From a virus, in the IMG/VR virus record IMGVR_UViG_3300030419_007131, positions 32,001 to 96,000 of that record: a stretch of 64,000 bases of DNA; one strand, 5' to 3'. Below are positions 36,544-61,654 of this stretch, one piece after another. Under the pieces are notes generated by a model, which saw only the letters and a program-made list of their open reading frames with translations, was not told the origin of the DNA and made no database searches. The position numbers and the translations under genes were made by a program. The number at the start of each line of letters is the position of its first letter. Position 1 is the first letter of the stretch.

Positions 36544-37782
36544 TCAGATGTCTAGCTTGATCTTAAATGTAAAGTCGCGATTGGCAGTCTTTCGAACAGG
36601 AGTGGCCATTTTGGCAATACCGATGAGATTCTTTTTCGAATCATAAATGCCAACCTTAGAAATATAGGTTGTCTTGTCAAAGGATGCGGTGGGATCTCCG
36701 TATGCTGAGCTGACAATGTTTTTAATAGCAATTTCGTCATTCTCGATATAAGCACGAGAACCGGAGGCTATAGAGTTGCCTGCGGAATAGGTCACAAAAG
36801 TGGGATTGTTAGACTGGTTGATTTGTCCTTTGGGACACGTGGCAAACATCGTAAGGGTTTGTGTATAAGTGGTACCGCTGAACTCCATAATAAAGGACGA
36901 ACTAGGTGCGATGACGCTTCCAGAAATTGATTGGCCAAAAAATACCCACGCGGGGTTGTCGCCAGCTGGGGTGTCGACGGAGCTTGTATAGGCATCAGTT
37001 ACGGTCGTAGAAAGGGCGTCGGATGCAGTTAACACTATGAACCCTTCATTATACAGAGCGAACCCTATGACGCTACCCGAGCCCACTCCATAGGTGGAGT
37101 ACAGAGCACCATCGCGATTTTTATCGGTAGCCTGCCCAACGAGAGTTCCGGTGATATAATATTTTAAATCAATAGTCCCTTTCTTAATCTCTGAGCCATA
37201 AAAAATACCGGGAATGTTGATCAATCCGACGGGTACTGAGCCCAGGTCTCTCGTTACAGGGCCGCTAGATGCGCTGAAAACCACATTGGGGTTTAAGTAA
37301 CGATAATGATTTATGGTGTTCTTTAAAGCATATAAATGAGAAACATATGCTGAAGATGTACGAGTGGTAGTTGCACTATAATACTCCTTGGCAATACTGG
37401 ATGTGTATGGATACGAACTGATCATCACGTCTCCATAATTGGAGGTGTTGAAGGATGCAGCGGCTTGGGTGCGATATCCAATACGCGAGCCAGTTTTCAC
37501 AACAAATGAATAAATGAGGCCTGAATCGGGGGTCTCTTGTGCAGGGTCCGGGCTAGAAGGGCCTATCAGGCGCCCAGTAGAGGAGGAAACTCTATCAACA
37601 TTTAACTCATAAAGAGAAACAAACCCAGCATCGGTAAGCCTAATGGGGTCTGCAAACGCACCTGAAAGATTGGGGGTATTATTATAAAAAGCGGAGCCGC
37701 TATAAACTAAAAATTTAACGCTTGGATGTGTCTTTAATGTGTTTGAATAAACATCATTTTTGTTAAACTTATAATAAGGCAT
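36544..37782 (-). CDS. Baseplate / tail structural protein
   Basis: C-terminal YISKVGIYD...NLIGIAKMATPVRK...FTFKIKLDI resembles the tail-collar-fibre domain; paralog of the next gene. Confidence 0.65.
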   Translation of the reverse strand: MPYYKFNKNDVYSNTLKTHPSVKFLVYSGSAFYNNTPNLSGAFADPIRLTDAGFVSLYELNVDRVSSSTGRLIGPSSPDPAQETPDSGLIYSFVVKTGSRIGYRTQAAASFNTSNYGDVMISSYPYTSSIAKEYYSATTTRTSSAYVSHLYALKNTINHYRYLNPNVVFSASSGPVTRDLGSVPVGLINIPGIFYGSEIKKGTIDLKYYITGTLVGQATDKNRDGALYSTYGVGSGSVIGFALYNEGFIVLTASDALSTTVTDAYTSSVDTPAGDNPAWVFFGQSISGSVIAPSSSFIMEFSGTTYTQTLTMFATCPKGQINQSNNPTFVTYSAGNSIASGSRAYIENDEIAIKNIVSSAYGDPTASFDKTTYISKVGIYDSKKNLIGIAKMATPVRKTANRDFTFKIKLDI

Positions 37783-37802
37783 GCCATAACCGCGTCTGCA
37801 CT

Positions 37803-38942
37803 CTAATAATCTAATCGCACTCTGACGGTAAACTCAGTAGTGGGATCCTTCTTCAGAGGCTCCGACAGCTTGGCGACCGCCAAAAGTTCGTTATCTGGCG
37901 AATATAATCCGACTGTTGTCACATATGAAACTGGGAGATCTTGTGAGTTATTTTTCACAACCATCTTACTAGCACTAACATAGGTGGTATTAGAGGAATA
38001 ATTAAAGTCTGTATTATTTGCGCGGCAGAAATAGACCGTTGAATTAAGTTCGGTTGTATTGTTGAATGATATATTAGATATCCGTCGACGGAGATTATCC
38101 GCATTCGTGTCAATAGTGGTGCCGCTCAAGGCCGTATTAAAAAACGAAGCACCATTAGTCGGAGTTACTTGAGTATTAGGCTCGCCGCCGCGTGAAGGTG
38201 AAGCAGCCGGATTACTAGTTGCGAGGAGGCCCGTAGTGGGGCTGCTACCAGTAAAGCTTCTAAAAAGAGAACACGTGAGGACCATGACCGCAGCCTGATA
38301 ATATAGCAAGCCTACCTTGGCATATCCATTCTCATCAACGGCTCCCGCAGCAAGATTGGATCCAGTTGCATAAAGAATACCATATTCGCCGGCCGGAGAA
38401 TTGATTTTATATCCATTCGAGCCGCTCTTGTCTGTTATCGTAACCGATTGCGATAATGGAGTTGTTGAGCCCACACCTTTTGACGTGAAGATCGAAAACT
38501 GAAAGCTTCCCTTCTTGATCTCATCTTTGGCCAGCAGTCTCGTAAAGTTAAAGAAAAAGGCTTCCTTGTTCTTGTTGCCGCCGGTCAAATCGCCGTCTTC
38601 GTCGAACTCACGAATGGCGCCAGTTTCATCATATCCCACCAAAACCTGTGCCATTTCATTATAGATGTTAATTTTCTTGGCATTTTGGACACGATCAGAT
38701 GAACCAGACAGTCCCGAGTTCGCCGAATAACCGCAGGTTATATCTAAAAGATGATTAGCTGAGGAGCTTAAGTATGGGTAATCATAAACTGATTGGAACA
38801 TCCCGTGTCCATAGTTTTTAATATTAGCATCCGCGTATGTTCCTGAAATAATGGTTCCCGTGATTGGAATCGCCTCGTGTAATAGGTTTCTTGTTACAAC
38901 CGAATCTTTGCCGGGTTCAAAAGTTTTAAATGAAGTAGCCAT
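37803..38942 (-). CDS. Baseplate / tail structural protein
   Basis: EIKKGS..., FNYSSN.T, YVTTVGLY...NELLAVAKLSEPLKK...VRLDY. Confidence 0.65.
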   Translation of the reverse strand: MATSFKTFEPGKDSVVTRNLLHEAIPITGTIISGTYADANIKNYGHGMFQSVYDYPYLSSSANHLLDITCGYSANSGLSGSSDRVQNAKKINIYNEMAQVLVGYDETGAIREFDEDGDLTGGNKNKEAFFFNFTRLLAKDEIKKGSFQFSIFTSKGVGSTTPLSQSVTITDKSGSNGYKINSPAGEYGILYATGSNLAAGAVDENGYAKVGLLYYQAAVMVLTCSLFRSFTGSSPTTGLLATSNPAASPSRGGEPNTQVTPTNGASFFNTALSGTTIDTNADNLRRRISNISFNNTTELNSTVYFCRANNTDFNYSSNTTYVSASKMVVKNNSQDLPVSYVTTVGLYSPDNELLAVAKLSEPLKKDPTTEFTVRVRLDY

Positions 38943-46198: not shown

Positions 46199-47125
46199 TT
46201 AGCAGGGCTCCTCATTTTCATCGCCGGGCGCGCCTGTGCCCGCGGAATAAAGATCTCGATTAAGCTTCAATCTAGAGGCCGAAGTGGACAGGGCCTTCTC
46301 GCTTATATTTAGTTCCTCGATGACTTCTGGCGGAATTTCCTTATCTACTAAAACATTCATATAATACTCTACATTATCAGTAGTAGAAGCAGCAAAAGTC
46401 TGCACATCTTCAGGAGTATAAGCTTTCTGGATATACCCGGTCGAAGAAGAGTGAAAAACTTGAATATCGAAGTTCTCTTTAAGGAAATCAGTATTATTCT
46501 CATTTATTTCCATCATTAAATACTTCTCATTGAGGGCCAAAAAGATATCCGTATTGCCTATTCTCTCGCTAATGGAGATCGGTGAAAGTTGGGGATCCCC
46601 AGCTTTAAAATAAACCTCATAATCTACGGTGATATTCAACTGCGGGATGTTATTAATATACCCATCTTCATCCAAGTATGATACTGAAGATGAGATCTCA
46701 GGCTGAGACAGTAGTTGAAGCTGCCATGCGGCACTATATTGCGACAATAATGAAGCATTCCCTAAGGGATATGCATCTATTTTGCCAGTTTCTGCGAATA
46801 CAGGCTGTTTAAACGCCTCCACGTTTTCAGCGGGATCTGAATTAGTATTGCCGATTGCAGTCTGAAGATTGTTCAGGAACTTCGTTACACGCGTTTCGGC
46901 GCCAGTACGAGTAGGAATTATCTTAAGTTTGGGAGTCTCCTCTTGAATGCGCCCTTCTGACTGGTTTTGGTTTTCCACGTATCCAGACGCGGCCACATCA
47001 TACAGGATGTCGTCGTCAAAAAACGCATAATAGGCAGGGTCTAGTTTTCCTATTGCTAATGAATACTTGCCATATTCGGTAAGCACAAAATCTAGCACCT
47101 CTTCTTTTTTATTAAAAAATCCCAT
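46199..47125 (-). CDS. Baseplate-region structural protein
   Basis: N-terminal VLDFVLTEYGKYSL...YYAFFDDDILYD is homologous to the N-terminus of 38958..39905. Confidence 0.6.
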   Translation of the reverse strand: MGFFNKKEEVLDFVLTEYGKYSLAIGKLDPAYYAFFDDDILYDVAASGYVENQNQSEGRIQEETPKLKIIPTRTGAETRVTKFLNNLQTAIGNTNSDPAENVEAFKQPVFAETGKIDAYPLGNASLLSQYSAAWQLQLLSQPEISSSVSYLDEDGYINNIPQLNITVDYEVYFKAGDPQLSPISISERIGNTDIFLALNEKYLMMEINENNTDFLKENFDIQVFHSSSTGYIQKAYTPEDVQTFAASTTDNVEYYMNVLVDKEIPPEVIEELNISEKALSTSASRLKLNRDLYSAGTGAPGDENEEPC

Positions 47126-50100
47126 TACTTCCTACTCTTCTTGTTACTTGAATAACTACCACCAGATTTATTTCGTGACTTATTTTGTGTATAAGTGCCA
47201 GAACGCCGCTTACTTTGTTGGCTTTTCTTGTTACTCTTTTGTAACTGGCCGCGGCTCTGCTTCTTGTTGCTCTTCTTTGACTGTGATTTATCTTGTTTTT
47301 GATTCTTTCTAGATTTCCACGACTCGGTTGTTCGATCGACCTTATCTTGCTTCTGTTTCTGCTCTCTGTTCTGCGTTTTGGCGCCGGTCTTACTGCCAGA
47401 CTTCGAAGATCTCTTATTTTGATATCTGCTGCCGCTCTTGCCACCTGACTTCGAAGGCCCCTTGTCTTGGTATTTGCCGCCGCTCTTTCCGCCGGTTCGA
47501 CTCTTCCCGGTACCCTTATCATCAGTCCCACAATCAGCATCTGCCGTGCCCGGGGGTTGGTTGGGAGCTACACGACCAACAGGATCTGGCCTACGAATCG
47601 TAAGTTGTTCGCCCTCGCTAAGATCGAGGCCAATCTTCATATCTGCCGACACATACTGCACCTCTTCTTCAATCTTGGCAAGCTCAACTAAGGAGAAGTA
47701 ATCATACGGCCAATTGTAACTATAAGGCGTCGTAATTCGAGGTGTCAGAGCACTCACATTATCCGTGACCAAAGAGCGCCGATAGACTTCGAAATCTTTC
47801 TTGGCCTTCCGCTTGACCTTAAATACCAGCCACTGAATGTCATCCCCCTTATCCAAAATAAGGTCAACAAGTTCTTTTTCTTCCACTTCAGTCTCGGCGT
47901 GCTCAAATCTGTCGTCCAAATCGGGGGGGAGATTCTGCCAGATATCGGTGATATCTTTCTCGGTAAGTTTTGTGGAGAATTCAAATACATACATCAGAAT
48001 TGCATCTACTGTATCAAAGTCGACGAAGTTAAATCTTGGTGGGAATACATATTTGTCCATTGCGGCGACCAAGTTTTTATAAGTCTGTGAACGAGGGTCT
48101 GGCTGAGTAAATGATTCTAGAAGCTTTCCGTCTTTCGAGACTGTGCGCACCTCTTGTTCGGGGAACTTAATAAATTCTCGTCGATTCTTGATAGACTTGA
48201 ATGGAATGGCAACAATCGCTTCTTCAAGCTTGTACTCTTTCTTGGGTTTTCCAACGCGCTGGGGGGTTCCCACCTTGAATCCAACAACATCAGCCAGGGA
48301 CTCCCCGCTGCCATCTTCAAGCGTCACCCAGACGCCATCGCCGCCCGTACAGCGATTGCCATATTGGTGCCACATTCCGCGGGTTATCATCTGAGTAGCG
48401 CTTGCGGTGGCGTCGGTCTGAACATAACTTTCCGCAGGCACCGATCCAGTAGAAACCCCAGCAAAGTTCAGAATAGGAGTCTCAAACTTAGACTGGATTA
48501 ACCATCTGTCTTTCTGGGTGACGGTCTGATCCGGGACCTGTTGTAATCGTTCCAAAAGATTGAAAGAGTTATCTATTTGCATGCGGATGTCAGCGTTTGG
48601 ATCGCCAGCGCCGATGCTAGCATTCGCTGCATTAAGGTTGGGAGTGTATTCTTCTCTAAAAAATTCCGTAGTGGTATTAGAAATAATATCATTCAATGTA
48701 GGATAGCCACTTGAAGATGCACTATAAACAAACTTAACCGTCGCCGAACCATCATAGTAGGGAGGAGTAACGTGGGAAAAGCTTAAACTCCAGGGCCCGC
48801 CTTGCTTGTGGGGCAGACTGTTAACGGACGCGGCGCGGACTGACGCGCCTACAGGAGGACCAAAAGCACTACGTCGGGAATACATGTCAAATTTAACTTC
48901 GGCCGAAGAGCTTCGAGCGCACAAGGGATTTACATCGGAGCGATAGAGACGCATTACCATCGTATAGGTGGTTCCGTCTACAACCTTGCGGAAATTCTCT
49001 TCACGTGCAGACTGAAAATTTGTCAGCTCGCTCACAAACATATTGGTTGTTTCACATAAGAAATTATCAATAGCATGCTCATATAATGGACCATGCAGGG
49101 CGCAGGCGGGGGCGGAAAAAATATTGCGTTCTGGGGCAGAGCTGGATGCCACGCTTCCGGTAAACAAGAGGCCAAAGGCAAAGGCACCAGTGCTGGAGAC
49201 GCCCGGCGGGGTGCGCTCTTTTCTTAGCGATGCGGGGCCCCAGCTATAACTACTAGACGGGTGCCTATCAAGCAAGACGTTGAGGCGCCCATTTGGATAA
49301 TTAGAGAGGGCCGTCACATCTACAGAGGCGTCACGAGCGCCCCACTTGGTAATCCTAGTCTTAAGCCACTCATTTGAAAAATATTGTGTTGGATTGTATA
49401 AAGCTTCAAAAGGAAGCTGGGTCATCATGGCGGCCCCCAGTGACATGCCAAACGAGCTCAAGTCCTCAGTTTGAGGGCCCGAGCCCGAGCTTTGCCACAG
49501 AACATTGGCATCTTGGCCGTACGCCTCGAACCAGTTGCCGGGGTTTCCGCGATGAGTGCCGTAATAATTTCCATCTTTATCAACCGCTCTCTGGTCGCCA
49601 GCGCAAGCGAACTCGGGGACGAGGTCAGGGATGGCGTTACCAATTTGGGTGCCCATGAGTATGAAGTCGCTGGTAGCTAGGCCGGACTTAATTGTATTAA
49701 ATAAGATGCCCGGGGACATAAGAGGTTCCATAATTGGACGCAAAGGAAGACCTGGGGCAACCCGGGCAGTATGTGTAATATCAGCCGGGTCAGTAAATGT
49801 TCCTGTCATATAACATAATTGCGGCCCGTAGGACTGTGAGAAGATGCGAGCCAACTCCACCGTTCGTTCTGCTGGGTAAAACCCCCTATAAGGCACAAAC
49901 TTCAAAAGAGCGTCGCACTTTAAGGACACCTTGTCTCGCACAATCATGAGATCTCCAGATCGTTTTTCGTTTAAATCATCATCGACAACTTTAAAATATT
50001 TCAAGAAATCAGAATTTGTATAGGTCCTATAGAACCCCTCTTCCAAGCTGCTGCTGACGGCCGCACCCGAAAGTTCAAAAATATTATCTACCGGAGAAAG

Positions 50101-53100
50101 AAAGTCGCCTCCTTGATCTTCAAGAAGATACTTCATATGAGAGCTTATGCGGAATTCGGGCAAAATAGAATAATCTTTACCAACCGCGCGAATTCTGTCA
50201 GAGATCAATGTATAGTTTTTGTAAGGATCTTTTCCGGCTTGAGAAGGAGCCATCCATACGGTATCGCCCCCAAACGCTACTTCGCTCGCTGAAACGATTC
50301 GATTCGCAGCGCCTTCTGCAGCGCTGCCATCGCCCTGTGTATTTCCGGCAGGCACCCTAAGCGCATACGTTGGCGCGGCATGAGGAGAAGGATGCTCCCG
50401 TTCGTTCCAGGATGTGCCATACACACGGGGGAGGCCGTTCTTTTGCGTCCAGGTTCCATAAAGGTTCATAAGGAGTCCCGAACCGTCTGAGGACGTGGCA
50501 GATTGGGTGACACTATAGTTGAGGTGCGCGTCTAGAGGCCAAGTGCTCTGAGAGGCAATCATGTTGGCGGGCTGGCCCAGGGTTCCGGTGATTGCTGTCG
50601 AGGCGCCTCCATAACGAAGACTGCGGAACTGACGATTAGAGTTCCAGATATTGTCAACATTATAGGCAGTGCGGCCGCGAACAGTCGCCCTAAAGGCATT
50701 CTCGGCCGCTGGATAAATTCTCTGACTATAGTCCATCATCAGACTAAGATCGCTGTTTAGAGCGAACTCGACAATCGAATCGTAGACCTTCGGCTGAGTC
50801 AGGTCGATCTTTAGACCAAGCCTGTTATCCAGGGCTGTGTGTGAAAAATAATCAAATTGATTTGAAAAGGATGGTGCCTTCATCATAATGTTATTTATGG
50901 GGTCGGCGTCTTCGGTATTGTCTTCGAAATAAAAGTAGAAGGGCGAAGCTTCTTGTGCTATCGGCGCTTCAATGAAATCCCTAAACTCATTGGGGCGAGA
51001 GGGATGAGTATACCCTGTCACCTTTTCACCGACCCGATTGGGTATAGCGCGAGGATAAACAGTGGTGCCTATAAGGTTGTTCTTGCGCAGGAGTCGGGCA
51101 ACTTTTGTTTCACCTCCGCGAATTTGTTTCCAGGTTGGCCAGCCGTAAGGGCCATTGCGGTTATTAAGAGTGATGTTTAAAGTGCTGCCGGCTGTCCAAA
51201 CGCTTTCGCGCGAAAGGTTTACGTTGGTGGCTATCCCGGTAGATCCAGAGAGTGCAAAGGCGGAGCGGTTGTAAATGGTCGTAGTAGGAGTGCCATCGGT
51301 AGCGATACTCAAATGATCACCAAGCTGCTTAGTTGCCTCATAGTTAATGTTGTTATAATCGGGGAGAGTTTTCGAGGCAGGCTTGACATATGCTGCTGGC
51401 TTGCCGCCGGCGAAAGGATCAAAGCGCCACCATGCAACCATCGCACTGCCAGTGTTCCAATCTATACGACTAGGATCTAGGGGTGCTCCGACGCCATATA
51501 ACGAACACCAATTCCACGACAAACCATAACAGTCCGTACCAATCGCCACACTTCGAGAAAGAATCAGAATATCAGCGATATTTCCATCCCAGCCGCGGGT
51601 TCCATCGCCCGAGTTACCAATTGTACATCTGTCTGTGGAAGTGGGCAGTTCTATTACATCATCGTTAACAAGAGACCCGGACACAAATCCATTAAAGCCT
51701 CGATACCTCGCGCCGGTATAAGCGAGGGGGTCGCCGCCGTCCATCCATACATAAAAGTAATTGGGGCGCATCGCGGGGAATCCCGGAGTAGCGGTATTGG
51801 AGCCTCCGCCATATGTCATAACAAAATGATGCCATTCCCCTGTGCTACCAGAGCGTCCAAAATAGTTCGTGGGAGTTACAATCTGATGGCGCCCCGTTGC
51901 TGTTTGAAGCTCAAAAGTTAAGCCGGAGCCGTTCCAAAAAATACGCCTTGCACCGTCGAAATCAATTACTCGACCGTATCCACCTCCTCCAGCGGCGCGA
52001 GGCTTAACCCAGCCGGCAATAGTGAACATATTAGCATTGGCTCCGGCGCCCCCGACGATTGGTTTCCAGATACTAGCGGGGCCAATGTCTACTTTGGAAT
52101 CTACTCCGTTAAAATCGCCTGAGTAGGCGCCGGCGATGGGTCCTTCTTCTGACGGGCTTTTGTAGCTGCCAGATCCTATTATGTGAGCATTTACTGAAAT
52201 CGGGTCGATCAACGACGTACCCAATGATCCAACAAAGTTATTTGGTTGTTCCCAATGATAGAACATATGATCGGATCCAGTTATAACTTGGGCTAATGTA
52301 GAAGCACTAGCACAGGCGGGTGAATCATATCCATAAATGCGGCCGGCTGAAGAGGATACCACCTGGGCCACCGTGGCCAACGTCGATGGTGTTTTGACAA
52401 CCAAAGAATCCGCAATCCATTTATACTGCTGCTTGGATTGTGGAATAGCGTGTTGCACAAAAAGATTATCATAAATTTTAAACTCTGATACGGGAGGCCA
52501 CTGTGTCGGCGCCGTAGTCGCTGTTGTATAAGGAGGCTGTAATGCGCCGCCCCAGCTAGGAATAATCTCTACACTTCCAACACCAGTATAATTTGTTGAG
52601 GCAAAAGGAGTTGGGGCGCGGTTCAGGCCGGAAGCTTTTGTGTCGCCGGCCGCAGCATCAAATGTGTAAAGCGCGCCGAGGCCATTAATAAAGGTATCTT
52701 TCTTGAAGATAGCATCCCCATCGCCATGATAACCATCATACAGGTCCGATACTTCTCGGGCTGTGAGATCCCGATTCCAAACAGCCACGTTCGCTATTTG
52801 CATCGTCGCTGCCCCCAATGCCGCATAGCCCGAAACAAAGTTCGTAGGCGCGGTGCCACCCGAGGCGGTAAAGTTCAAGGGATACCGCACCTGTCGATTC
52901 CAGAGAGAGTGAAAACCCCAGTTAGAAACCTCATAGGGCAGGTAGTCCTGGAAGCGTACGCGCTCTGCATCCATTTGTAACTCACCATTCAAATACATAT
53001 AGCAATTCAGGACCGGGACGGCTTCGTCGAAAACAGAAGACCCAGACTGCGCAACGATTGTTAAGTGATGCCACTGGCCCCGTTTGAGTCTGCGGCTGCG

Positions 53101-56100
53101 AAGCGCTATTGAACCATTGAAGTAGCCGGAAGCACCGGCAATCTTACAATATAAACGATCTACATTGCCGTTGTTTCCAAGGGTGTCGGGATCTCCCAGC
53201 CACACGATCTCTAAACCAGAATAACGTCCGGAGTTATAGGGCCCATCGCCCACTCCGAAAATTCTCCGCAGGCCCGTCGTACCGTCGTCATCGCGATTAA
53301 TCCACATCGAAATGGTATAAGACTGTGCTTGATCGGCCGAGGACGTACTTAACGTTCCGATTGCATCTTGCCAAGCTGCAGTAGTTCCGAGGTTCACCCG
53401 TTGTGTCGTCATCGATCCCGCTGGGCCGGCCAAATAGCTTTTAAAGCCTGCTTCTCCAAGAGCCCATTTCGCATTCCTATTGGTTTTTGTCCACGAAGGT
53501 ACGGTAACGTAACTGCCGGAAGTCACTGAGCCATAGGCTGCATCAGAACCAAATGGACCACAGTGCAGACTGGCGCGTTGATTGAGGCCACGATTCTTGC
53601 CAATCTGATCGACAACACGGATAGAATTTTGTATAGAAGGATCAACAGAAGCACTTCCCTGGATTCCATAATCGATAACCTGGCGGTTACGATACGGGGA
53701 AGCATTGTATACGGAAAGTTCTTCGTGGGCCGGGTCTAGGTATCCACGAGATAGCGTTCTATAGTCGCCCGGTGCACTAAAGCGGTTAACGATAATAGAT
53801 TGGTTTGAATTAGCGCCTTGTCGATCAGGAAGCGCATAATCTAGTTGTATGCCGTCTGATGATTCGAGAGAGCCCCAGCCGGCTGCAGAGCCTGTAAGGG
53901 TCGGAGCAAAGGTGGCTGGCTGGCCCAATCGTCCATTATTATTTCCCTTCTGGTCATATATATATTCACCGGAAATCCCCGAATCACGCGCGTCATCGCC
54001 CATTCTCCACCACGAAATGCACGAAGGGGCATAAGACAACAAGAAAGCCAGATTAAATGGTTTGCCATTATTATATAAAGTCTCCACCTCAGCCGCGCTA
54101 AACTCCTTGTTCCATATGCTAACCTCGTCCATATAGCCGTTGAAGGCCTTGTTTGTACCACCATTGGCACCAAGGGCGCCTATATTTGTTTCTATCGCAA
54201 CCGGACTGTCGGTATTGGTGCTTCCGTCGTCATTAACGCCGTTAAGATAAATGTGGAGTGCGCCGGCAGCGCCGCCGGCATAAGTCACAACAACGTGATA
54301 CCATGTATCCGCAGCAATCGTTGTACTACTTTGTCTCCAAGCAGAAGGGGCGTTGGTCCATTGTAAAATATTAGAAGCGTCCGTACGTATATATAGGTAT
54401 CTATCCGAGGTGCCGAACTTCATCAAATAAGGCAGAGTATCTGTTATCGAGGTAAGATTAATCCACAGTGAAATAGTAAAGGGTTTTGCGTCTGCACCAG
54501 CGCCGCCAATGGCCGCATCCCAGGTGGCGGCCGTTCCAATATTGATATAATCTCGATATCCATCGCTGCCGCCATCAAAATACATTGACTTTGTATTAGA
54601 ATCCCCCTGATGATTGGCCAACGGAGAAAGCGTGCGAAGCGCCGCAGCCATCGGATTCAGCGCGAAACTAAAGGACTGATCGTTAAAGAACGGATCATTA
54701 ACCGTCCGGGCATTACTATTGATAACCTGATAATTCTTCTGATAGTTGCCGATCGGATTATGAAGAATGGTGCCGCTCAAGCGCGTTCCCACCGAAGCCG
54801 TTGTCATCAAGATGTTCTTGATATTAACTGGGCGCTTGGATGTCTCGTCCCGGAACCGATAAGCCATAGGCAGATCCGGCAGGTAACCATACTCAGCACT
54901 GCCCGAAGGAGTATCTGCAAAGGGGTAGTTTGCCGGGACAATGCCTAGGGCGCCCGAGTAGCCGCTTGCAGCCATGCTGCCGGCATCTGCACCCAAAGCG
55001 AGGCGGAAGCCCTCAGCGCGGTTCTCACGCGTATCTGAGCCCTGATTCAACTCCGTGTGGCGATACTTGCGACCACCAACAAATTTCTCCGTGAAGGGCC
55101 CTTGCGCAGGAACATCATGATCATTCACAAAATCATTATGTAGATTGGTTATCATTGTTCCCGACTTCCACTGCTCTACTTGAATATTGTAGCCAGTTCT
55201 AACTGAGGAACTGTAAAGACTAAAGGGTGCAAAGATGTTTCCGTTTGCTTTCTTATCCGGGTCTGCGCCCCCATCAGCACCGAAAGTATTAATGCTCGGA
55301 TCTAAGGAGAAGCCCAATCGTTGTTTGAATGTGGGATGATATACGTCAACAGTTTCAATCAAGTCCTCGACATCTGTATCAAAGGACAGCATGATATTGA
55401 TCGGAACGTTAGAAGCCGAAACTGTAGGTCCAAAGGGCTGAATTGCTGGGAACAAAGCATTTGGCCGGTTAATAGGAGGCCTGCCTACGCCGCCGAAAGT
55501 GACAGCTCCCTCTGCATCGAACCTAAAGGGGGCACCAATGCGCCGGTCATAAGATTGGCGGATTGCATTCAAAAGATCAGCGCGTACGGGATTGAGGCTA
55601 CTCGAAAGCGGAAGATCGTCTCTCTCGGCAACATAACGCCACCAGTAAACATTCTTATTCTCCTGATAATTAGCGACAGTAGTATAAGTTCCGCCGCCGA
55701 CCACTGCTGTATCTGCAGCGCTCATTGTTTCTATGGTAGCTCGGCTATTATTTAATATTTGCCAGCTTCCGGAAGCGTTATTCACTCCCTTTTGATCTTT
55801 GATTTCTGCGACTGCATCGTTGGCGGCCGAACCAAATCTCCACCAAGAAACTAAGTCCGAATAAGCCGAATGGGTTGTGAGATTCTGGGGGCCCGGATTA
55901 AAACCAGTTGCAGGAGCAAAACCAGTAGTCTTGTTATATATCTCTGCTACTTCGGAGGCACTCAGCTTCTTCCCCCACAAACTCATAGTAGCTATCTCGC
56001 CGGCCCGGAAAGTCTCATTTGCATTGCCCGCTGAAAATGCAGCATCAAGCATCGATCCTATGCGCGCACTGTTGTTAACTGTAGGCACCGTTCCTATAGG

Positions 56101-59100
56101 CTGATAGGTGACACTAATAGTTTGAGCCACCCCGTTAACATAAATGACCGGAACGTTTGCTGTGTCAGAGGCATCATATGCAACTGCAATATGGCGCCAA
56201 GAATCACCAGAAATTCCAGCGCCGGATGTAATCCATTCACCATTCCTGCCGGTAAAATTGATACTAAAATACACTTCGCCACTGGAACGCAAAGATACTC
56301 GTCGGAATCCATTTTCGCCAAACATAAACCATTCACGGTGGCCATCCGAAGGATTATATTTAACCCAGCCGGCAAAAGTAGATGCCGAAGAACTCAAGCT
56401 TGTCCACGATGAGTCGAGGGCGATATCATATCCTACAGCAACCGCGGGGGCCGGTGCATCAGGCTGTGTCAGCGCAACATACCTGGTATTATAGTAATCA
56501 TAAGTGGTGGTGTATATTGGGTGCGCCGGAGCATGCACATGCTTCCAGTTACTTATCTGAGTGGGGTTGGATGATCCAATCTGTCTCTTTGTCGGGGAAG
56601 TATTTGAGAACAAGAGGGTACCAGCAGGAAGGTCATCCGGTGATCCTCCCGCAGTGCTGTCAATCACGTTCACACCGTTAAACGACGCTGTGATATCCAG
56701 GGCGCCGACTCGCTCCAAAAACGGGAATATTCTTCGATACTTGGGGCGCTCTAAAAGATGGTTCTCAATAATCGTGCGCACATTTGCAGAAAAGTCGGCG
56801 GAGGCCGGAACCAATTGTCCCAACATAAAGGACAGCGAGGAATCAAACCACTTATAAAACTCATAAAAGCGATCAAAATCCATAGTATCGTTAGACACTT
56901 TTTCGAAAAACTTTCTCCTCATGAATTGCAGCTGCTTATAATGCGGGCGATGCTTTTCGACAGAATCACCGATTAAGTTATGTAAATCCTTAAGATTTGC
57001 AAAAGAATTGATCATCTCTTCGGAAATAACCTGATACATGCTCTTTTCAAAAGCAAAATAGAAGTCGGTTGGCCTAGTTTCCGAAGTAAAAAGTTCTTGA
57101 TCCTGGGTGCCGAGGACCTTAACCATGTCTTGAGAAACAATATTTTCTGGGAGATTAAGTTTCGATGAAACAACAAAGTCCTTGTCTATAGCCTTAACTG
57201 AAGATGCCAAGAAGTTATTTCCGAGACCAGTGTACTGTCGATTAAGAAGGGGGCCCAAAACACCAAACGTGGTTGCAGTAGCGGAACCAGATGCCAAATC
57301 GTCCACCACAAACTGCTGACTTGCGTTCGAACCTGTGTTAGTTAAGAACTCCCAGTTAAAAGCCAGAGTATCGATCTTCGCGACGTCGCCATTGGAACCG
57401 CTTGTATCAAATTGGAATGCATAAAGGTGCGGCTGCAGCGCTCCATGATTCTCGGTATCTAAGATATGGCTATTAAGGGTTTCATCATTCAAATAATCGA
57501 GCCAGAAACGGCATGCGTTTACCTTAACATCGCTAGTTTGAAGGACGTTTCCGGTGAAATCTTCACGGTGGGCGCCGATATAGACACGTCGCGAACCAGT
57601 TATGAAGCCAGCTGGGGGCGCACTAACCGTTCCCGAAACAGTGAATTCCTGCATAATATCGCCAGCTTCGGCCTGAACACCATGAAGCTCCACGACATAG
57701 TTACCGTCGAGACCGCCATAGGCAGCCCCAGCGCTGTTTGAAAGCCCCGCAATTGGATATTTCGCGGGTCGAACTCGGACCGCCAGATTCCATCGTGTGT
57801 TGTCGTATACTCCTTCATAAAGTGGAGAGGTAAGATAGGGAACAAAACCGCCGGCGGTGCCAGTGAGGACAAACCTCGCATTATTTGAAGTCCTTTCATC
57901 CCTAACTGCATATACTTGGAAGTTAACCCTATCAGGCGACGGCCATGTGGTTGCGGCTGTCTCTGTAGTCCCATGCACACCAAACAAAGAAGAAGACACA
58001 ACATTCGTGTCATAATATACAATGGACTCCGGATCCAGCTTTTTGGGCATGAGCACTTCTGTTTCAAGCGTATAGGAATACCCTCCTGTTAAAGAAGTAA
58101 CCGAGGGAAGATATCCAACGGAGTTGGCATTCGAGGAGTCGGCATAGTTATAAACATTCGCATATTGATTTTCGGCAGTATTGAAATTAACAAATCGATC
58201 CGTGACGATAACGTTTCTGCGACTATTTCGCATCTCATACTGAACGTTATCGGCATACATGTTGATCTTGACAAGCTCGTCGTCAATGCCAAAACATCGA
58301 ATAAGGTTTCTAAAAGCTTTTTCAGTACCCTTAGACTTATAGATATAACTTAAGTTGTTATATATGTTCTGATAGATGGTATTTTTAATGTCATGTAAGG
58401 ACTTGTCGAAAATCTTATTTTCGCTACGATCAGCAAGCTTTTCTAAAACGTCCGCATCAACAAATAAATCTGGTGCCACAAAGCCATACGTACCCAAGAA
58501 CCTTTCAGAAAAAGGAATGGGCTTGTTGCTGCCGCTGGGATAGCTGATGTCTTTAATCTTATTGAGGCTACCGATCTGCAAGTGCAAAGTGTCAAAGTAG
58601 CTAGACAAGATTTGTGTTAGTTTCTTGAGGTCACCGCTTCCCTCGTCGTCCTCTTCGGTTATCCAAGACGGCACCGAACTGTACATGGAGGCATTGTTGT
58701 TAACATCGTGTTCGGAGCCACTAAGTTCCAGTTCAGTATTGAGCGCAACCACCTTAGGGTGGAAAGCATAAATAATCGGATCTTCAAACTCTTTCGTAGC
58801 AGCCGAAGAAGAAATTATAGCAGAGCCAGTATTCCGGGAAGATGAGTTATATCCTGTCCACGCTCCGTTTGAAAATCGACCTGAGTAATCCAGCACCGTA
58901 CTATCGGTGGCTGACTGACCTGTAATCCCTTCGTTGAACTTAAAGTAAACGCCCAAATCAACATTGGCGGTCTCACTTGTATCTATAAAGGGTGTAGGAT
59001 CACTGTTAACACCGCCGCCCACTTGGGTAAACCAAAAGCGCCCAATATCTTGCGAAGTTCGTTGAGTCTTCCAATACCTAAATTCGTCCAAGGAGCCAGA

Positions 59101-60102
59101 TAATTTACCAGAGGCGGCGGCTGCAGTCGAACCAGATGGGCTGCCGATGAGAGCGCCGATATAAGCCTGTAAGCTAGTATTTTCAGCGTCGTTTAATCCT
59201 GCGGTACCGAGGGTCGTCTCGTTGCTGATGCGCCCATCAACATAAAAGCGCGTAGTTACGCCGGCAGCTGCAGAGAGCATGGTGACCGCATAATGGTGCC
59301 AGCTTCCATCGGCTATCGACGCCGTTGTAACAGAAGCCGGGCAGATGTTTTGACTAAAGAACCCGGTAGAACCAGAGTATGCGGTCAGGCGAAATGGCCC
59401 CACTCCATCAGTAGCTCCCGTTAACTCAAGGCGCAGGCGTGTGTAGTCGGCAGATGAAGACACCACACCATTCCACATATCAAAAATAACTTCTTTTTCT
59501 GTAGAGCCGGTAATGAACTCATCTTTTTTCAACCAAAATTCGATTGTTGAGCCACTGGAGGCTAAATCAAACTCAAGGTTAGAACCCCTATTCTTGGTTG
59601 GTTCATAGTAATTGGAGCCTGTAAAGGTTAGCGCAAGAGGAGACATGCCGTCAGGATTGACGTTTGGTCCGCCCTTGACATGAATGTATTCGTTATTGGC
59701 AGCTGCATTAGGAGCACCGTAGCCATCGGTCAAGGTCGAAGCGCCATAACCGTCTGCTGTTAATATGACATAACCTGTTGTACGCGGATAGCGCTTATCA
59801 AAAATATAGAGATCCAAGTAAGTGGACTCATTCATCCACTCCAGCTTTTCTCTAAGGGACCCATCATAGGGATAAGTATTATAAATGCGCTCTAAAGATT
59901 GCTTGTAGTAAGAAACCGCAGAACCATATCGAGCGAAATTTCCGGGCTTGGAAAAATCGACGTGAGGTATAAACCGTTCTTCCTCAATAATATCCTGTTC
60001 CTGATATCCAACAGATTCAACTTGATCTGCGATTTCGGCAGCAGTCTTATTAGAGAGAGACTGAATGTTTTCTGCAATCTCAAAATACTTCTTGATGCTC
60101 AT
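47125..60102 (-). CDS. Giant baseplate protein (4325 aa): wedge-like segment, several LamG/ConA-like domains and a basic tail
   Basis: YIYKSKGTEKAFRNLIRCFG resembles the P2 gpI / T4 gp7 wedge motif; at least five TI..W..WHH....Y.NG...G..DE...W LamG patterns. Confidence 0.8.
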   Translation of the reverse strand: MSIKKYFEIAENIQSLSNKTAAEIADQVESVGYQEQDIIEEERFIPHVDFSKPGNFARYGSAVSYYKQSLERIYNTYPYDGSLREKLEWMNESTYLDLYIFDKRYPRTTGYVILTADGYGASTLTDGYGAPNAAANNEYIHVKGGPNVNPDGMSPLALTFTGSNYYEPTKNRGSNLEFDLASSGSTIEFWLKKDEFITGSTEKEVIFDMWNGVVSSSADYTRLRLELTGATDGVGPFRLTAYSGSTGFFSQNICPASVTTASIADGSWHHYAVTMLSAAAGVTTRFYVDGRISNETTLGTAGLNDAENTSLQAYIGALIGSPSGSTAAAASGKLSGSLDEFRYWKTQRTSQDIGRFWFTQVGGGVNSDPTPFIDTSETANVDLGVYFKFNEGITGQSATDSTVLDYSGRFSNGAWTGYNSSSRNTGSAIISSSAATKEFEDPIIYAFHPKVVALNTELELSGSEHDVNNNASMYSSVPSWITEEDDEGSGDLKKLTQILSSYFDTLHLQIGSLNKIKDISYPSGSNKPIPFSERFLGTYGFVAPDLFVDADVLEKLADRSENKIFDKSLHDIKNTIYQNIYNNLSYIYKSKGTEKAFRNLIRCFGIDDELVKINMYADNVQYEMRNSRRNVIVTDRFVNFNTAENQYANVYNYADSSNANSVGYLPSVTSLTGGYSYTLETEVLMPKKLDPESIVYYDTNVVSSSLFGVHGTTETAATTWPSPDRVNFQVYAVRDERTSNNARFVLTGTAGGFVPYLTSPLYEGVYDNTRWNLAVRVRPAKYPIAGLSNSAGAAYGGLDGNYVVELHGVQAEAGDIMQEFTVSGTVSAPPAGFITGSRRVYIGAHREDFTGNVLQTSDVKVNACRFWLDYLNDETLNSHILDTENHGALQPHLYAFQFDTSGSNGDVAKIDTLAFNWEFLTNTGSNASQQFVVDDLASGSATATTFGVLGPLLNRQYTGLGNNFLASSVKAIDKDFVVSSKLNLPENIVSQDMVKVLGTQDQELFTSETRPTDFYFAFEKSMYQVISEEMINSFANLKDLHNLIGDSVEKHRPHYKQLQFMRRKFFEKVSNDTMDFDRFYEFYKWFDSSLSFMLGQLVPASADFSANVRTIIENHLLERPKYRRIFPFLERVGALDITASFNGVNVIDSTAGGSPDDLPAGTLLFSNTSPTKRQIGSSNPTQISNWKHVHAPAHPIYTTTYDYYNTRYVALTQPDAPAPAVAVGYDIALDSSWTSLSSSASTFAGWVKYNPSDGHREWFMFGENGFRRVSLRSSGEVYFSINFTGRNGEWITSGAGISGDSWRHIAVAYDASDTANVPVIYVNGVAQTISVTYQPIGTVPTVNNSARIGSMLDAAFSAGNANETFRAGEIATMSLWGKKLSASEVAEIYNKTTGFAPATGFNPGPQNLTTHSAYSDLVSWWRFGSAANDAVAEIKDQKGVNNASGSWQILNNSRATIETMSAADTAVVGGGTYTTVANYQENKNVYWWRYVAERDDLPLSSSLNPVRADLLNAIRQSYDRRIGAPFRFDAEGAVTFGGVGRPPINRPNALFPAIQPFGPTVSASNVPINIMLSFDTDVEDLIETVDVYHPTFKQRLGFSLDPSINTFGADGGADPDKKANGNIFAPFSLYSSSVRTGYNIQVEQWKSGTMITNLHNDFVNDHDVPAQGPFTEKFVGGRKYRHTELNQGSDTRENRAEGFRLALGADAGSMAASGYSGALGIVPANYPFADTPSGSAEYGYLPDLPMAYRFRDETSKRPVNIKNILMTTASVGTRLSGTILHNPIGNYQKNYQVINSNARTVNDPFFNDQSFSFALNPMAAALRTLSPLANHQGDSNTKSMYFDGGSDGYRDYINIGTAATWDAAIGGAGADAKPFTISLWINLTSITDTLPYLMKFGTSDRYLYIRTDASNILQWTNAPSAWRQSSTTIAADTWYHVVVTYAGGAAGALHIYLNGVNDDGSTNTDSPVAIETNIGALGANGGTNKAFNGYMDEVSIWNKEFSAAEVETLYNNGKPFNLAFLLSYAPSCISWWRMGDDARDSGISGEYIYDQKGNNNGRLGQPATFAPTLTGSAAGWGSLESSDGIQLDYALPDRQGANSNQSIIVNRFSAPGDYRTLSRGYLDPAHEELSVYNASPYRNRQVIDYGIQGSASVDPSIQNSIRVVDQIGKNRGLNQRASLHCGPFGSDAAYGSVTSGSYVTVPSWTKTNRNAKWALGEAGFKSYLAGPAGSMTTQRVNLGTTAAWQDAIGTLSTSSADQAQSYTISMWINRDDDGTTGLRRIFGVGDGPYNSGRYSGLEIVWLGDPDTLGNNGNVDRLYCKIAGASGYFNGSIALRSRRLKRGQWHHLTIVAQSGSSVFDEAVPVLNCYMYLNGELQMDAERVRFQDYLPYEVSNWGFHSLWNRQVRYPLNFTASGGTAPTNFVSGYAALGAATMQIANVAVWNRDLTAREVSDLYDGYHGDGDAIFKKDTFINGLGALYTFDAAAGDTKASGLNRAPTPFASTNYTGVGSVEIIPSWGGALQPPYTTATTAPTQWPPVSEFKIYDNLFVQHAIPQSKQQYKWIADSLVVKTPSTLATVAQVVSSSAGRIYGYDSPACASASTLAQVITGSDHMFYHWEQPNNFVGSLGTSLIDPISVNAHIIGSGSYKSPSEEGPIAGAYSGDFNGVDSKVDIGPASIWKPIVGGAGANANMFTIAGWVKPRAAGGGGYGRVIDFDGARRIFWNGSGLTFELQTATGRHQIVTPTNYFGRSGSTGEWHHFVMTYGGGSNTATPGFPAMRPNYFYVWMDGGDPLAYTGARYRGFNGFVSGSLVNDDVIELPTSTDRCTIGNSGDGTRGWDGNIADILILSRSVAIGTDCYGLSWNWCSLYGVGAPLDPSRIDWNTGSAMVAWWRFDPFAGGKPAAYVKPASKTLPDYNNINYEATKQLGDHLSIATDGTPTTTIYNRSAFALSGSTGIATNVNLSRESVWTAGSTLNITLNNRNGPYGWPTWKQIRGGETKVARLLRKNNLIGTTVYPRAIPNRVGEKVTGYTHPSRPNEFRDFIEAPIAQEASPFYFYFEDNTEDADPINNIMMKAPSFSNQFDYFSHTALDNRLGLKIDLTQPKVYDSIVEFALNSDLSLMMDYSQRIYPAAENAFRATVRGRTAYNVDNIWNSNRQFRSLRYGGASTAITGTLGQPANMIASQSTWPLDAHLNYSVTQSATSSDGSGLLMNLYGTWTQKNGLPRVYGTSWNEREHPSPHAAPTYALRVPAGNTQGDGSAAEGAANRIVSASEVAFGGDTVWMAPSQAGKDPYKNYTLISDRIRAVGKDYSILPEFRISSHMKYLLEDQGGDFLSPVDNIFELSGAAVSSSLEEGFYRTYTNSDFLKYFKVVDDDLNEKRSGDLMIVRDKVSLKCDALLKFVPYRGFYPAERTVELARIFSQSYGPQLCYMTGTFTDPADITHTARVAPGLPLRPIMEPLMSPGILFNTIKSGLATSDFILMGTQIGNAIPDLVPEFACAGDQRAVDKDGNYYGTHRGNPGNWFEAYGQDANVLWQSSGSGPQTEDLSSFGMSLGAAMMTQLPFEALYNPTQYFSNEWLKTRITKWGARDASVDVTALSNYPNGRLNVLLDRHPSSSYSWGPASLRKERTPPGVSSTGAFAFGLLFTGSVASSSAPERNIFSAPACALHGPLYEHAIDNFLCETTNMFVSELTNFQSAREENFRKVVDGTTYTMVMRLYRSDVNPLCARSSSAEVKFDMYSRRSAFGPPVGASVRAASVNSLPHKQGGPWSLSFSHVTPPYYDGSATVKFVYSASSSGYPTLNDIISNTTTEFFREEYTPNLNAANASIGAGDPNADIRMQIDNSFNLLERLQQVPDQTVTQKDRWLIQSKFETPILNFAGVSTGSVPAESYVQTDATASATQMITRGMWHQYGNRCTGGDGVWVTLEDGSGESLADVVGFKVGTPQRVGKPKKEYKLEEAIVAIPFKSIKNRREFIKFPEQEVRTVSKDGKLLESFTQPDPRSQTYKNLVAAMDKYVFPPRFNFVDFDTVDAILMYVFEFSTKLTEKDITDIWQNLPPDLDDRFEHAETEVEEKELVDLILDKGDDIQWLVFKVKRKAKKDFEVYRRSLVTDNVSALTPRITTPYSYNWPYDYFSLVELAKIEEEVQYVSADMKIGLDLSEGEQLTIRRPDPVGRVAPNQPPGTADADCGTDDKGTGKSRTGGKSGGKYQDKGPSKSGGKSGSRYQNKRSSKSGSKTGAKTQNREQKQKQDKVDRTTESWKSRKNQKQDKSQSKKSNKKQSRGQLQKSNKKSQQSKRRSGTYTQNKSRNKSGGSYSSNKKSRK

Positions 60103-60109
60103 ATTCTAA

Positions 60110-61654
60110 TTATTCTTCAACCCTAAATTTAAACGTCTGAGGTTGTTCCTCCCACGACCCTATACTGTCATTATAATAAGCGAGCTTTATTTCATACATA
60201 TAATCCGGCGCTAACATTGAAATATCAAGATCAAAATAGTTGCCCGCGTCGTCATATGAAAGATATGTACTAAGATCAGATCCTGTCCCAAATGGAATAG
60301 CTACATAGTTGTCCGTTACGCGTGTAACAGAAAAGGAGGCGCTTTCCATAATGTCAGTTGGATTATTGGCGGTCGATACAGTATAAACGGTAGGACTCCA
60401 ATCCTTGTCTCTAATGAAAAACCTAAACCTAGATGTATCTGTTTGAGAATATTTTTTCTTCAAGTTAGTGCAAGAGGTGATTTTGTTAAAAGTGGGCGCC
60501 GAAGCATACGTGGGAAAAAGCTCCGGGTAGAAAGAGCCTGTGCGGAACTCTACGCCGCCGGAGTGCCAAACGTCATGCATGGCCAGCACACGCGTCGAGG
60601 CGGCCGTCAGGGCCACCTCACACTTATATATGCCCGGGCTTACATAGCTAGCCGTCGCATTAAGGTCGCCCGACGCTGCAACGCCACCGCCGACAGGGAG
60701 AACGAGTTTAGAAGCAGTGGGCGCACTGTTTGAGCTAGAATAAAAAGAAACCAGTAAGTTATTGGTGCCGACTGCTGGAATGTTCACGAGGCGCCCTCGA
60801 ACATAATTGTACAAATATAAGGTATTAAGATTGTCCGCAGCGGGGGCGGCGGAGCTTGAATAATAAATGTTCTCCCTGTTATCCATTATGCGGGAGTCCC
60901 ACCGAGCTTCAATCAGCGGCCGCTTAAAAAAGAACTCAGTAGAACGAGCAAAAAACTTCTTAGTATAATAGGATTCTTGGGCCCCCTGGATGTTGTTAAT
61001 AAGAACTGACGTGTCTTGACCTGTAGAGCTTGAGAAATATGCCTCTTGGCTGGCAGTAAGTCGTACGCCAAACCCATAGTTGTTAATGACCCCAATCGCA
61101 GGAGTGACTCCCTCAAACTTTAGCCACTCTTCGATTATGTGACTCACATCAAGCTCTATATCCTCATAGCCTTGCGGAAACGAAACATTATAGTTAGATG
61201 CTGTTAGATAATCTCCACCAATGGAGGTCCAAAATGTAGAATTATCCGACTTACTCCAGTTGGCTGAACCAAAGTCTTGATAGTTGTCCATATCTAAGCC
61301 GGTGCCTTCGGCCCAAGACCGTGAGACCGGGGCGATTACAAGATTAAATCCTTGTGGTAACGTCCAGGGATGGCGGGCGTTAAACATCCTTAAGTAAAAT
61401 GAAACGCTTCCTGATGCAGGAATACTACCAGCCGTCCTCTGGGCTGCTATGGTTGAAACAGGAAACTGAATTAGGACCCGGGACAACTCTTGGGATTGTC
61501 CAGTTGTTGAGCCGGAACTCTGCCCATAAATAGAAAAGATTTCTAATGAATCGGCATAGCCCATATTAGAGCCGGTGCCCCTCAGGCGCAAGTTGTCTTC
61601 AAACGCATTCGTTATTGTTGTATCTGCGCTAGCTGTATATCTTACAATGGCCAT
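60110..61654 (-). CDS. Baseplate-associated structural protein with a DNRLRE-like N-terminal domain
   Basis: ADTTI..., SRVLIQF, FYLRMF, PVSRSWAEGTG pattern. Confidence 0.55.
   Translation of the reverse strand: MAIVRYTASADTTITNAFEDNLRLRGTGSNMGYADSLEIFSIYGQSSGSTTGQSQELSRVLIQFPVSTIAAQRTAGSIPASGSVSFYLRMFNARHPWTLPQGFNLVIAPVSRSWAEGTGLDMDNYQDFGSANWSKSDNSTFWTSIGGDYLTASNYNVSFPQGYEDIELDVSHIIEEWLKFEGVTPAIGVINNYGFGVRLTASQEAYFSSSTGQDTSVLINNIQGAQESYYTKKFFARSTEFFFKRPLIEARWDSRIMDNRENIYYSSSAAPAADNLNTLYLYNYVRGRLVNIPAVGTNNLLVSFYSSSNSAPTASKLVLPVGGGVAASGDLNATASYVSPGIYKCEVALTAASTRVLAMHDVWHSGGVEFRTGSFYPELFPTYASAPTFNKITSCTNLKKKYSQTDTSRFRFFIRDKDWSPTVYTVSTANNPTDIMESASFSVTRVTDNYVAIPFGTGSDLSTYLSYDDAGNYFDLDISMLAPDYMYEIKLAYYNDSIGSWEEQPQTFKFRVEE

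Follow-up and report, generated by a model that had tools for sequence, protein, structure and literature searches.

Virion proteins of the head, neck, sheath, baseplate and fibres of an aquatic T4-like phage, represented by IMG/VR record IMGVR_UViG_3300030419_007131, carry a marked excess of the tripeptide [ST]-[GA]-S, in which Ser or Thr is followed by Gly or Ala and then by Ser. The record is a single phage contig (165,065 bp, 46% GC, CheckV completeness 91%) whose minus strand carries nearly all of its genes. The window, the 64,000-nucleotide stretch under study, comprises bases 32,001-96,000 of this contig, and coordinates are window positions unless marked as genome positions. Among all 176 open reading frames (ORFs) of the genome, 15 virion proteins hold 150 copies of the motif where 48.5 are expected (~3-fold), and the remaining 161 ORFs hold 34 where 40.7 are expected, which is the chance level. 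Beyond the window, within an island of sugar-synthesis genes, the same genome encodes two GT4 glycosyltransferases (GTs) side by side. To judge from sequence comparison, the best explanation, with a chance just short of even, is that [ST]-[GA]-S is an O-glycosylation acceptor motif served by this phage-encoded GT pair and the sugar island.

The tripeptide excess resides in sequence order

A preliminary description of the window had drawn attention to the broader pattern [ST][GAS]S, and every one of its hand counts was reproduced: 13 copies in a 412-amino-acid (aa) protein, 14 in a 514-aa protein, 6 in the protein encoded at 37803-38942, 5 each in the gp13-like neck protein and the capsid protein, 56 in a 4325-aa protein and 78 over the five ORFs of the fibre block at 7705-19011. 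The proteins that it had named as contrasts are likewise as described, with no copy in the 1050-aa SbcCD nuclease, the primase, the portal or the gp6-like wedge and one each in the terminase and the scaffold.

Such counts could be an artefact if they arose from a composition rich in Ser, Thr and Gly, from low-complexity patches or from duplicated domains. S, T and G are indeed more frequent in the carriers than in the enzymes, and the fibre proteins have repeated segments in common. However, the excess persists under the composition-preserving shuffles that had been proposed as a check (z = 5-9 for the main carriers with whole-protein shuffling), and shuffles within blocks of 10, 20 or 40 residues still yield z = 4-8, so the signal lies in sequence order and neither in composition nor in local S/T/G-rich patches. 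No tripeptide is more over-represented in the carriers than SGS (56 observed, 13.6 expected; 4.1-fold), and TGS (36 against 10.4; 3.5-fold) and SAS (32 against 11.4; 2.8-fold) come next. SSS and TSS are only marginally elevated (2.1- and 1.4-fold), such that the motif as originally defined, [S/T]-[G/A/S]-S, stands for its [ST]-[GA]-S core and barely for the forms with a central serine. Rearranged tripeptides show no comparable excess in the carriers (GGS, 0.8-fold; SSG, 0.7-fold; STS, 0.8-fold; SGT, 1.3-fold; TGT, 1.5-fold); the motif is directional and requires Ser rather than Thr at its third position.

Duplication likewise fails to account for the signal. Paralogous regions contain 36 of 144 sites, and once all regions with a paralogous BLASTP hit are removed, 107 sites are left where 37.2 are expected (z = 12). 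This agrees with the earlier remark that the motif is not one repeat family, and a single repeated decoration domain was rejected as its source. In addition, a 4749-aa protein of cyanophage S-T4 with matched S/T/G content shows no excess (13 sites against 12.4 expected, 1.0-fold). With global and local shuffles, permuted motifs and the S-T4 control all opposed to it, a compositional or low-complexity artefact was rejected and appears highly improbable. A cause at the DNA level was also rejected, given that both the 9-mers and the codons at motif sites are varied; the codon variety places the signal at the protein level. A 111-aa ORF (29751-30086) with 27.9% Ser and no Thr, which overlaps neighbouring ORFs and is perhaps not a gene, was excluded from the statistics.

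The residues around the motif are dissimilar apart from a preference for aliphatic side chains. L/I/V is enriched 2.1- to 2.4-fold at position -1, which bears out the initial impression that the motif often follows a hydrophobic residue, and is favoured at -3, +1 and +3 as well.

Motif sites favour the periphery of the capsid, sheath and neck proteins

The motif is confined to a subset of the structural proteins (Table 1): the portal, terminase, protease, tail tube, gp6-like wedge, nuclease and primase have at most one [ST][GA]S site each. The gp6-like wedge orthologues of Microcystis phage Mel-JY01 and the Flavobacterium 'immuto' phages, two relatives introduced below, also have none.

Comparison with T4 proteins indicates where within a carrier the sites reside. 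T4 gp18 aligns only to residues 743-959 of the sheath protein, its conserved core, and 9 of the 11 sheath sites fall at residues 174-587, in the variable outer region. All five sites of the neck protein are at residues 20-161, ahead of the part that is conserved with gp13. In the capsid protein, residues 127-286 constitute a lineage-specific expansion in place of ~47 residues of T4 gp23*. The preliminary description had assigned four of the five capsid sites to a central insertion; in the alignment, residues 170, 187 and 224 are inside the insertion and residue 310 is in an adjoining stretch aligned to the gp23 insertion region. When these three proteins are pooled and each region is shuffled on its own composition, 18 sites fall in the periphery, where 6.9 are expected (P = 0.0002), and 3 in the conserved cores, where 1.6 are expected. 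The peripheral regions of the capsid, sheath and neck folds face outward in T4. The earlier claim that the motif marks outward-facing proteins therefore holds as a statement by homology about the capsid, sheath and neck, the three carriers in which placement could be checked. AlphaFold2 models of the 412- and 514-aa proteins have mean pLDDT values of 32.8 and 40.3, respectively, which are too low for mapping the exposure of sites.

The largest carrier, the 4325-aa protein, has at least five Laminin_G_3 (concanavalin-like lectin) domains, the only Pfam family that it matches, and BLASTP finds no internal repeats in it. About one-third of the 1419-aa fibre protein is internal repeat.

The excess persists across a divergent phage lineage

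Sequence similarity places the phage with the Rhodothermus phage RM378-like 'Far-T4' group (PMC4360716), because its capsid protein and terminase are nearer to those of RM378 than to those of T4 (capsid, E = 5e-44 versus 3e-25; terminase, E = 2e-63 versus 6e-46). Only 12 of its proteins have tblastn-detectable homologues in RM378. Its nearest characterized phages, with ~30% identity in the wedge protein, are Mel-JY01, the immuto phages and an uncultured phage of 484 kb (LR756508).

Seventeen structural proteins of T4 (gp6-13, wac, gp18, gp23, gp24, Hoc and gp34-37) show no excess (SGS, 5 against 4.9 expected; TGS, 2 against 5.2), which together with the S-T4 control implies that the motif is not a general fibre property. 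The S-T4 protein follows a gp6 homologue, the same position that the 4325-aa protein has here. In the relatives, by comparison, over-representation is strong: SGS occurs 30 times against 4.2 expected and TGS 17 times against 2.9 in Mel-JY01, and the corresponding values in immuto are 28 against 6.7 and 25 against 6.1, with SAS at 19 against 6.0 and TAS at 16 against 4.9. RM378 has 24 SGS genome-wide where 8.9 are expected, with seven proteins at z = 3-6.7, and a complete IMG/VR genome (G001) encodes six strongly enriched proteins. The excess is retained in each of 28 homologues from IMG/VR (38-85% identity), of which 20 belong to the 412-aa protein (38-82% identity) and 8, with 11-17 sites each, to the 514-aa protein. 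The immuto 'tail spike' (1053 aa) has 53 [ST][GA]S where 12.2 are expected, and it also displays a separate strong repeat signature (HAE, SHA, YSH, ASY) that represents a repeat family distinct from the motif.

Within these families many sites are fixed in position, yet they interchange within their class (SGS/SAS/SSS and TGS/TAS/TSS), and new sites arise in lineage-specific insertions. The motif serine is better conserved than other serines in the 514-aa family (0.81 versus 0.54, P = 0.013), and the values for the 412-aa family point the same way (0.64 versus 0.49, P = 0.10). At conserved columns, 84-94% of the middle residues are G, A or S, although which of the three is present changes. A swap of the motif between related phages, which the preliminary description had envisaged, was not seen; [ST]-G-S is constant over the lineage, and only the tolerance of a middle Ala varies.

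It could be that [ST]-[GA]-S is instead an unmodified structural or assembly element of this lineage, such as a tight turn between beta-strands or a tag read by a chaperone, with the GT genes unrelated to it. The preference for L/I/V at -1, -3, +1 and +3 is what a strand-turn-strand arrangement would produce, many sites are conserved in position, and most carriers are beta-rich proteins that either belong to no known family or have Laminin_G_3 domains. However, T4 and S-T4 proteins that match the carriers in architecture and composition lack the motif, which is moreover directional and demands Ser over Thr at position 3. A turn that requires positive phi is hard to reconcile with columns in which Gly, Ala and Ser replace one another freely. 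The RM378 proteins are also instructive. The 12 RM378 genes for which a homologue can be detected in this phage include none of the RM378 carriers, and p128, the RM378 orthologue of the densest carrier, the 412-aa protein, is not enriched. The excess is thus absent from p128 and present in RM378 proteins without detectable relatives here, so the motif is not tied to a fold, and a purely structural role seems unlikely. Its maintenance over deep divergence in proteins that are not detectably related calls for a heritable factor that acts in trans. The 412-aa protein and its 379-aa paralogue both match p128 (RM378 116,276-117,526) and are among the few non-core virion proteins that can be traced across the lineage.

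A conserved glycosyltransferase pair lies in a sugar-synthesis island

The preliminary description had noted no modifying enzyme in the window and had supposed that one might be encoded elsewhere; this proved to be so. Two adjacent GT4 genes (genome 122,411-123,664 and 121,144-122,409) lie ~25-28 kb past the window end, and further GTs are also present. The 417-aa member of the pair matches PF00534 (Glycos_transf_1, retaining glycosyltransferases) with 46.6 bits, compared with a curated cut-off of 26.4, and its best match among solved structures is the glycosyltransferase B736L of chlorovirus NY-2A (3OY2, E = 5e-8). Its 421-aa partner is a divergent paralogue (PF00534, 17.9 bits; PHROG 2170 glycosyltransferase, E = 6e-12), and the orthologues of the latter likewise give sub-threshold PF00534 matches. 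The GT4 signature E-x7-E, a motif of the C-terminal Rossmann domain, is kept in both proteins and across their orthologues, as AEGFGLSTLE in the 417-aa family and GEGWGLPLFE in the 421-aa family.

Every relative that was tested retains the two genes as a pair; identity is 45-75% for the IMG/VR contigs and 31-33% for immuto and Mel-JY01, and the RM378 counterparts are p013 and p014. In 80 of 80 IMG/VR loci found through the 421-type protein, a 417-type gene is adjacent and on the same strand. A syntenic cassette in immuto and Mel-JY01 consists of a nuclease, the two GT4 genes, a GT-A-type GT, a methyltransferase and a further GT. The 417-type GT is rare: among 50,697 phage records only seven carry it, all of them from this group (four immuto phages, Mel-JY01, LR756508 and RM378). 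It is also one of the 12 proteins in common with RM378, with a match (E = 3e-34) comparable to those of the portal and sheath, and among these 12 it is the sole protein outside replication and the head and tail core and the sole sugar-handling enzyme. The paper on the Far-T4 group (PMC4360716) mentions neither GTs nor sugars, and the searchable literature yielded no account of the motif and none that treats the GT pair as a lineage hallmark.

The surrounding island extends over ~20 kb (genome ~105.3-127.2 kb). It encodes four SDR epimerase/dehydratases, two DegT-type aminotransferases, an RmlC-like epimerase, a lone thiamine diphosphate (ThDP) E1 component and WecB, along with a methyltransferase, a GNAT acetyltransferase, a cupin, a PfkB kinase, two cytidylyltransferase-like proteins and several GTs, of which GT2-type, Glyco_trans_1_2 and GT-D-like members are additional to the pair. 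This content suggests synthesis of an unusual amino or branched sugar, and possibly also of a heptose. No multi-pass membrane protein is encoded in the island, hence no flippase, polymerase, ligase or polyprenyl-phosphate transferase, and a route to an exported polysaccharide was rejected on this ground; a 1099-aa hydrophobic protein encoded elsewhere in the genome matches no family.

One copy of the heptamer CTATTTA heads a co-directional run of PhoH, nuclease and GT genes. Genome-wide, this heptamer occurs 35 times on the coding strand versus 6 times on the opposite strand, and 21 copies lie no more than 60 nt upstream of ORF starts, among them those of genes for the sheath, neck, scaffold and fibres. 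Such behaviour resembles that of a late promoter, one different from the TATAAATA of T4, and the position of the heptamer ahead of the PhoH-nuclease-GT run provides weak evidence of late co-expression.

Relation of the motif to the glycosyltransferase pair

Motif and GT genes occur together in Mel-JY01, immuto, RM378 and the IMG/VR relatives, in line with the initial expectation that the one should track the other across phages. The GT pair is also the sole enzyme-like candidate for a trans-acting factor to emerge from these sequence comparisons. The preliminary description had regarded the tripeptide as a selected site for an enzyme encoded elsewhere, for example a glycosyltransferase; the composition controls, the peripheral placement in the three proteins of known fold and the co-occurrence with GTs support this proposal in part, and the presence of a sugar on the serines is conjectural.

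Under the glycosylation hypothesis, [ST]-[GA]-S, usually after L/I/V, would act as an acceptor tag on exposed parts of outer virion proteins, and its third-position serine would be O-glycosylated. The enzymes responsible would be the soluble, phage-encoded GT4 pair, with sugars supplied by the nucleotide-sugar genes of the phage itself, and the further GTs (GT2-type, Glyco_trans_1_2 and GT-D-like), the methyltransferase and the GNAT protein would extend and trim the glycan. Modification would take place in the cytoplasm during late gene expression and would leave a glycan coat on the particle. Conceivably, such a coat could protect the virion from proteases or defences, or could reduce non-productive sticking. 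We infer the action of the GTs on motif serines, the assignment of the initiating GT and the role of the coat from the genomic associations given above.

A possible natural 'half system' is provided by LR756508, which encodes a 417-type GT (LR756508.1 305,432-306,748) and no 421-type partner. It has no strongly enriched protein, only a diffuse genome-wide excess of 1.36-fold.

Several observations weigh against glycosylation of the motif by this pair. All strong positives belong to one clade, which leaves few independent contrasts, and the co-occurrence of motif and GTs may reflect shared ancestry; the contrast with a single GT comes from one genome, LR756508. Further long carrier contigs, with capsid proteins 63-68% identical to that of this phage, would bring in no new independent contrast. 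Non-virion proteins show no significant avoidance of the tripeptide (34 against 40.7, P = 0.17), so that recognition, if real, must use more than the tripeptide itself, and the hydrophobic flanks equally fit a purely structural element. The genomic setting of the pair also permits other substrates. Its neighbour, a PD-(D/E)XK exonuclease gene, is syntenic in this phage, immuto and Mel-JY01, and the pair adjoins replication genes in RM378. The 417-aa GT passes the cut-off of Pfam GT4-conflict, and GT4-like enzymes glycosylate DNA in other phages, the DNA arabinosyltransferases being GT4-like (PMC13326640).

These features would be accommodated if the GT cassette acted on nucleic acid, a small molecule or host glycans and the motif were read by something else, through phosphorylation, acylation, a host enzyme, or a decoration or partner protein. 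The retention of a 417-type GT in LR756508 without a strong motif would also be explained. Yet analysis of immuto_2-6A DNA by liquid chromatography with UV and tandem mass spectrometric detection (LC-UV-MS/MS) revealed dA, dC, dT and fdPreQ1 in place of dG, with no glycosylated nucleoside (doi 10.1101/2023.04.13.536721), which weakens the case for DNA glycosylation as the task of these GTs in immuto. The island, moreover, is devoid of membrane export genes, and the 12 proteins in common with RM378 include no further enzyme-like candidate for a reader. Conversion of host serotype is atypical for lytic T4-like phages. Overall, a different reader of the motif is about as unlikely as a purely structural role, and these two are the main alternatives to glycosylation.

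If glycosylation by the phage is the explanation, it might be extended to a Far-T4-like aquatic lineage with hosts from Bacteroidota to Cyanobacteria, in which a three-residue O-glycosylation code would be read by obligately paired soluble GT4s with sugars from variable islands. This generalization is put forward tentatively, at somewhat less than an even chance.

Comparison with known glycosylation systems

By analogy, the proposed system would work most like virus-encoded glycosylation of virions, as in mycobacteriophages, chloroviruses and mimiviruses. Mycobacteriophages reportedly use GTs of their own to attach O-linked glycans to their virion proteins (Freeman et al., 2023, summarized in PMC12619734). 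The two cases are alike, as far as that summary describes the mycobacteriophages, in that phage-encoded GTs would place O-linked glycans on the virion proteins of the phage itself and shield the particle. The summary portrays siphoviruses with demonstrated glycosylation at the C-termini of capsid and tail-tube subunits; here, glycosylation is a proposal, and the tripeptides are dispersed over the outer domains of many myovirus proteins. The capsid sites fall at residues 60-310 of 593 and the tail tube (genome 30,753-31,436) has none, unlike the C-terminal pattern. Moreover, none of the seven phage records with a GT of the type found in the pair is a mycobacteriophage.

Chloroviruses and mimiviruses glycosylate their own surface proteins autonomously, at non-canonical sites. 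The resemblance to the present phage consists in virus-encoded soluble GTs combined with genes for nucleotide-sugar synthesis and sugar methylation, and extends to B736L as the best solved match of the 417-aa GT. In contrast, those are giant viruses of eukaryotes, and glycosylation is N-linked in PBCV-1 Vp54, the example studied best. Beyond the GT4 fold, nothing points to a common origin of the systems.

Two bacterial systems provide further points of comparison. GtfA/GtfB (GtfA structure 4PQG) is the O-GlcNAc system for the serine-rich repeat adhesins of Gram-positive bacteria, and it, too, is an adjacent GT4-like pair, active in the cytoplasm, whose target serines stand in S-[small]-S contexts. 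However, GtfB is non-catalytic, whereas both partners here keep E-x7-E, and the acceptors of GtfA/GtfB are long low-complexity repeats rather than isolated tripeptides with varied flanks in folded domains. Specific similarity to GtfA was not apparent either, the 4PQG match of the 417-aa GT reaching only E = 0.52 and Pfam reporting no other domain family for this protein. Membership in the GtfA/GtfB system was rejected, given two partners that look catalytic, the weak 4PQG match and the lack of a long serine-rich repeat acceptor.

The bacterial autotransporter heptosyltransferases (BAHTs; Aah/AIDA-I, TibC/TibA) work in the cytoplasm and O-glycosylate a surface protein at many serines, which lie in short loops that connect its beta-strands. 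The PfkB and cytidylyltransferase-like genes of the island could serve heptose activation in a similar manner, and the strand-loop-strand context of BAHT acceptors is suggested here only by the flanking residues. PF01075 finds no GT9-type heptosyltransferase in the genome at E <= 0.1, and membership in this group was rejected for want of a GT9 enzyme.

Other features of the window

The window encompasses a T4-like structural module, identified with PHROG and Pfam, that includes the sheath, gp13-like neck protein, gp23-like capsid protein, prohead protease, portal, large terminase, and gp6- and gp25/53-like wedges, as well as a primase and an SbcD-SbcC fusion nuclease. The fusion joins an SbcD-like part (residues 1-265) and an SbcC-like part (residues 351-1049), usually the products of two genes, in one protein of 1050 aa (30434-33586). 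Shortly before the window, the 1099-aa protein mentioned above (genome 25,982-29,281) has ~10 hydrophobic segments at residues 491-956 and no Pfam or PHROG match; it follows the sheath, the tube and a 287-aa gene, which is the usual position of a tape measure.

Table 1. Motif carriers, motif-free contrasts and heptamer sites in the window, with observed and expected numbers of motif sites
Feature	Window position	Strand	Basis and remarks
Tail sheath, motif carrier	1..2325	-	PHROG tail sheath; C-terminal 775 of 959 aa, start beyond window edge
gp13-like neck / head-tail adaptor, motif carrier	3336..4604	-	PHROG Ad2 match, residues 177-394
gp23-like major capsid protein, enlarged insertion	4697..6478	-	Pfam Gp23
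947-aa fibre-like protein, motif carrier	7705..10548	-	22 sites, 8.3 expected, z = 5.1; block shuffles z = 4.7-5.3
409-aa tail fibre protein, weak carrier	10608..11837	-	PHROG tail fibre; 6 sites, 2.3 expected
423-aa baseplate/fibre protein	13480..14751	-	8 sites, 4.3 expected; repeats in common with 1419-aa protein
1419-aa fibre protein, motif carrier	14752..19011	-	38 sites, 17.3 expected, z = 5.3
Portal, terminase and SbcCD-fusion nuclease block, motif-free contrasts	24197..33586	-	PHROG; 0, 1 and 0 sites
412-aa baseplate-region protein	36544..37782	-	13 sites, 3.4 expected, z = 5.5; densest, 3.2 per 100 aa
379-aa paralogue of 412-aa protein	37803..38942	-	6 sites, 2.4 expected; C-terminal domain in common
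4325-aa giant baseplate-associated protein	47125..60102	-	56 sites, 18.6 expected, z = 8.9
514-aa protein adjoining gp6-like wedge, motif carrier	60110..61654	-	14 sites, 3.3 expected, z = 6.2
gp6-like inner baseplate wedge, motif-free contrast	61654..63453	-	PHROG baseplate wedge; 0 sites
CTATTTA sites	2362, 4632, 7640, 10571, 11845, 19997, 24294, 35120, 39924	-	

Implications

Glycosylation of the phage particle is established only for some mycobacteriophages, where it affects C-terminal tails and has no defined sequon. If the proposal made here is true, [ST]-[GA]-S would give phages their first defined virion-glycosylation sequon, and a glycan coat encoded by the phage would cover the whole particle. 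It would explain the presence of large sugar-synthesis islands in lytic phage genomes and would give a function to a gene pair that is conserved as strongly as the portal or sheath. The proposal is open to direct testing, given that cultures exist of three motif carriers (the immuto phages, Mel-JY01 and RM378). Should the motif be a sequon, sequence by itself would suffice to predict the glycan sites of virions in a lineage abundant in both marine and fresh waters, and the coat would influence adsorption, stability, grazing and recognition by host defences.

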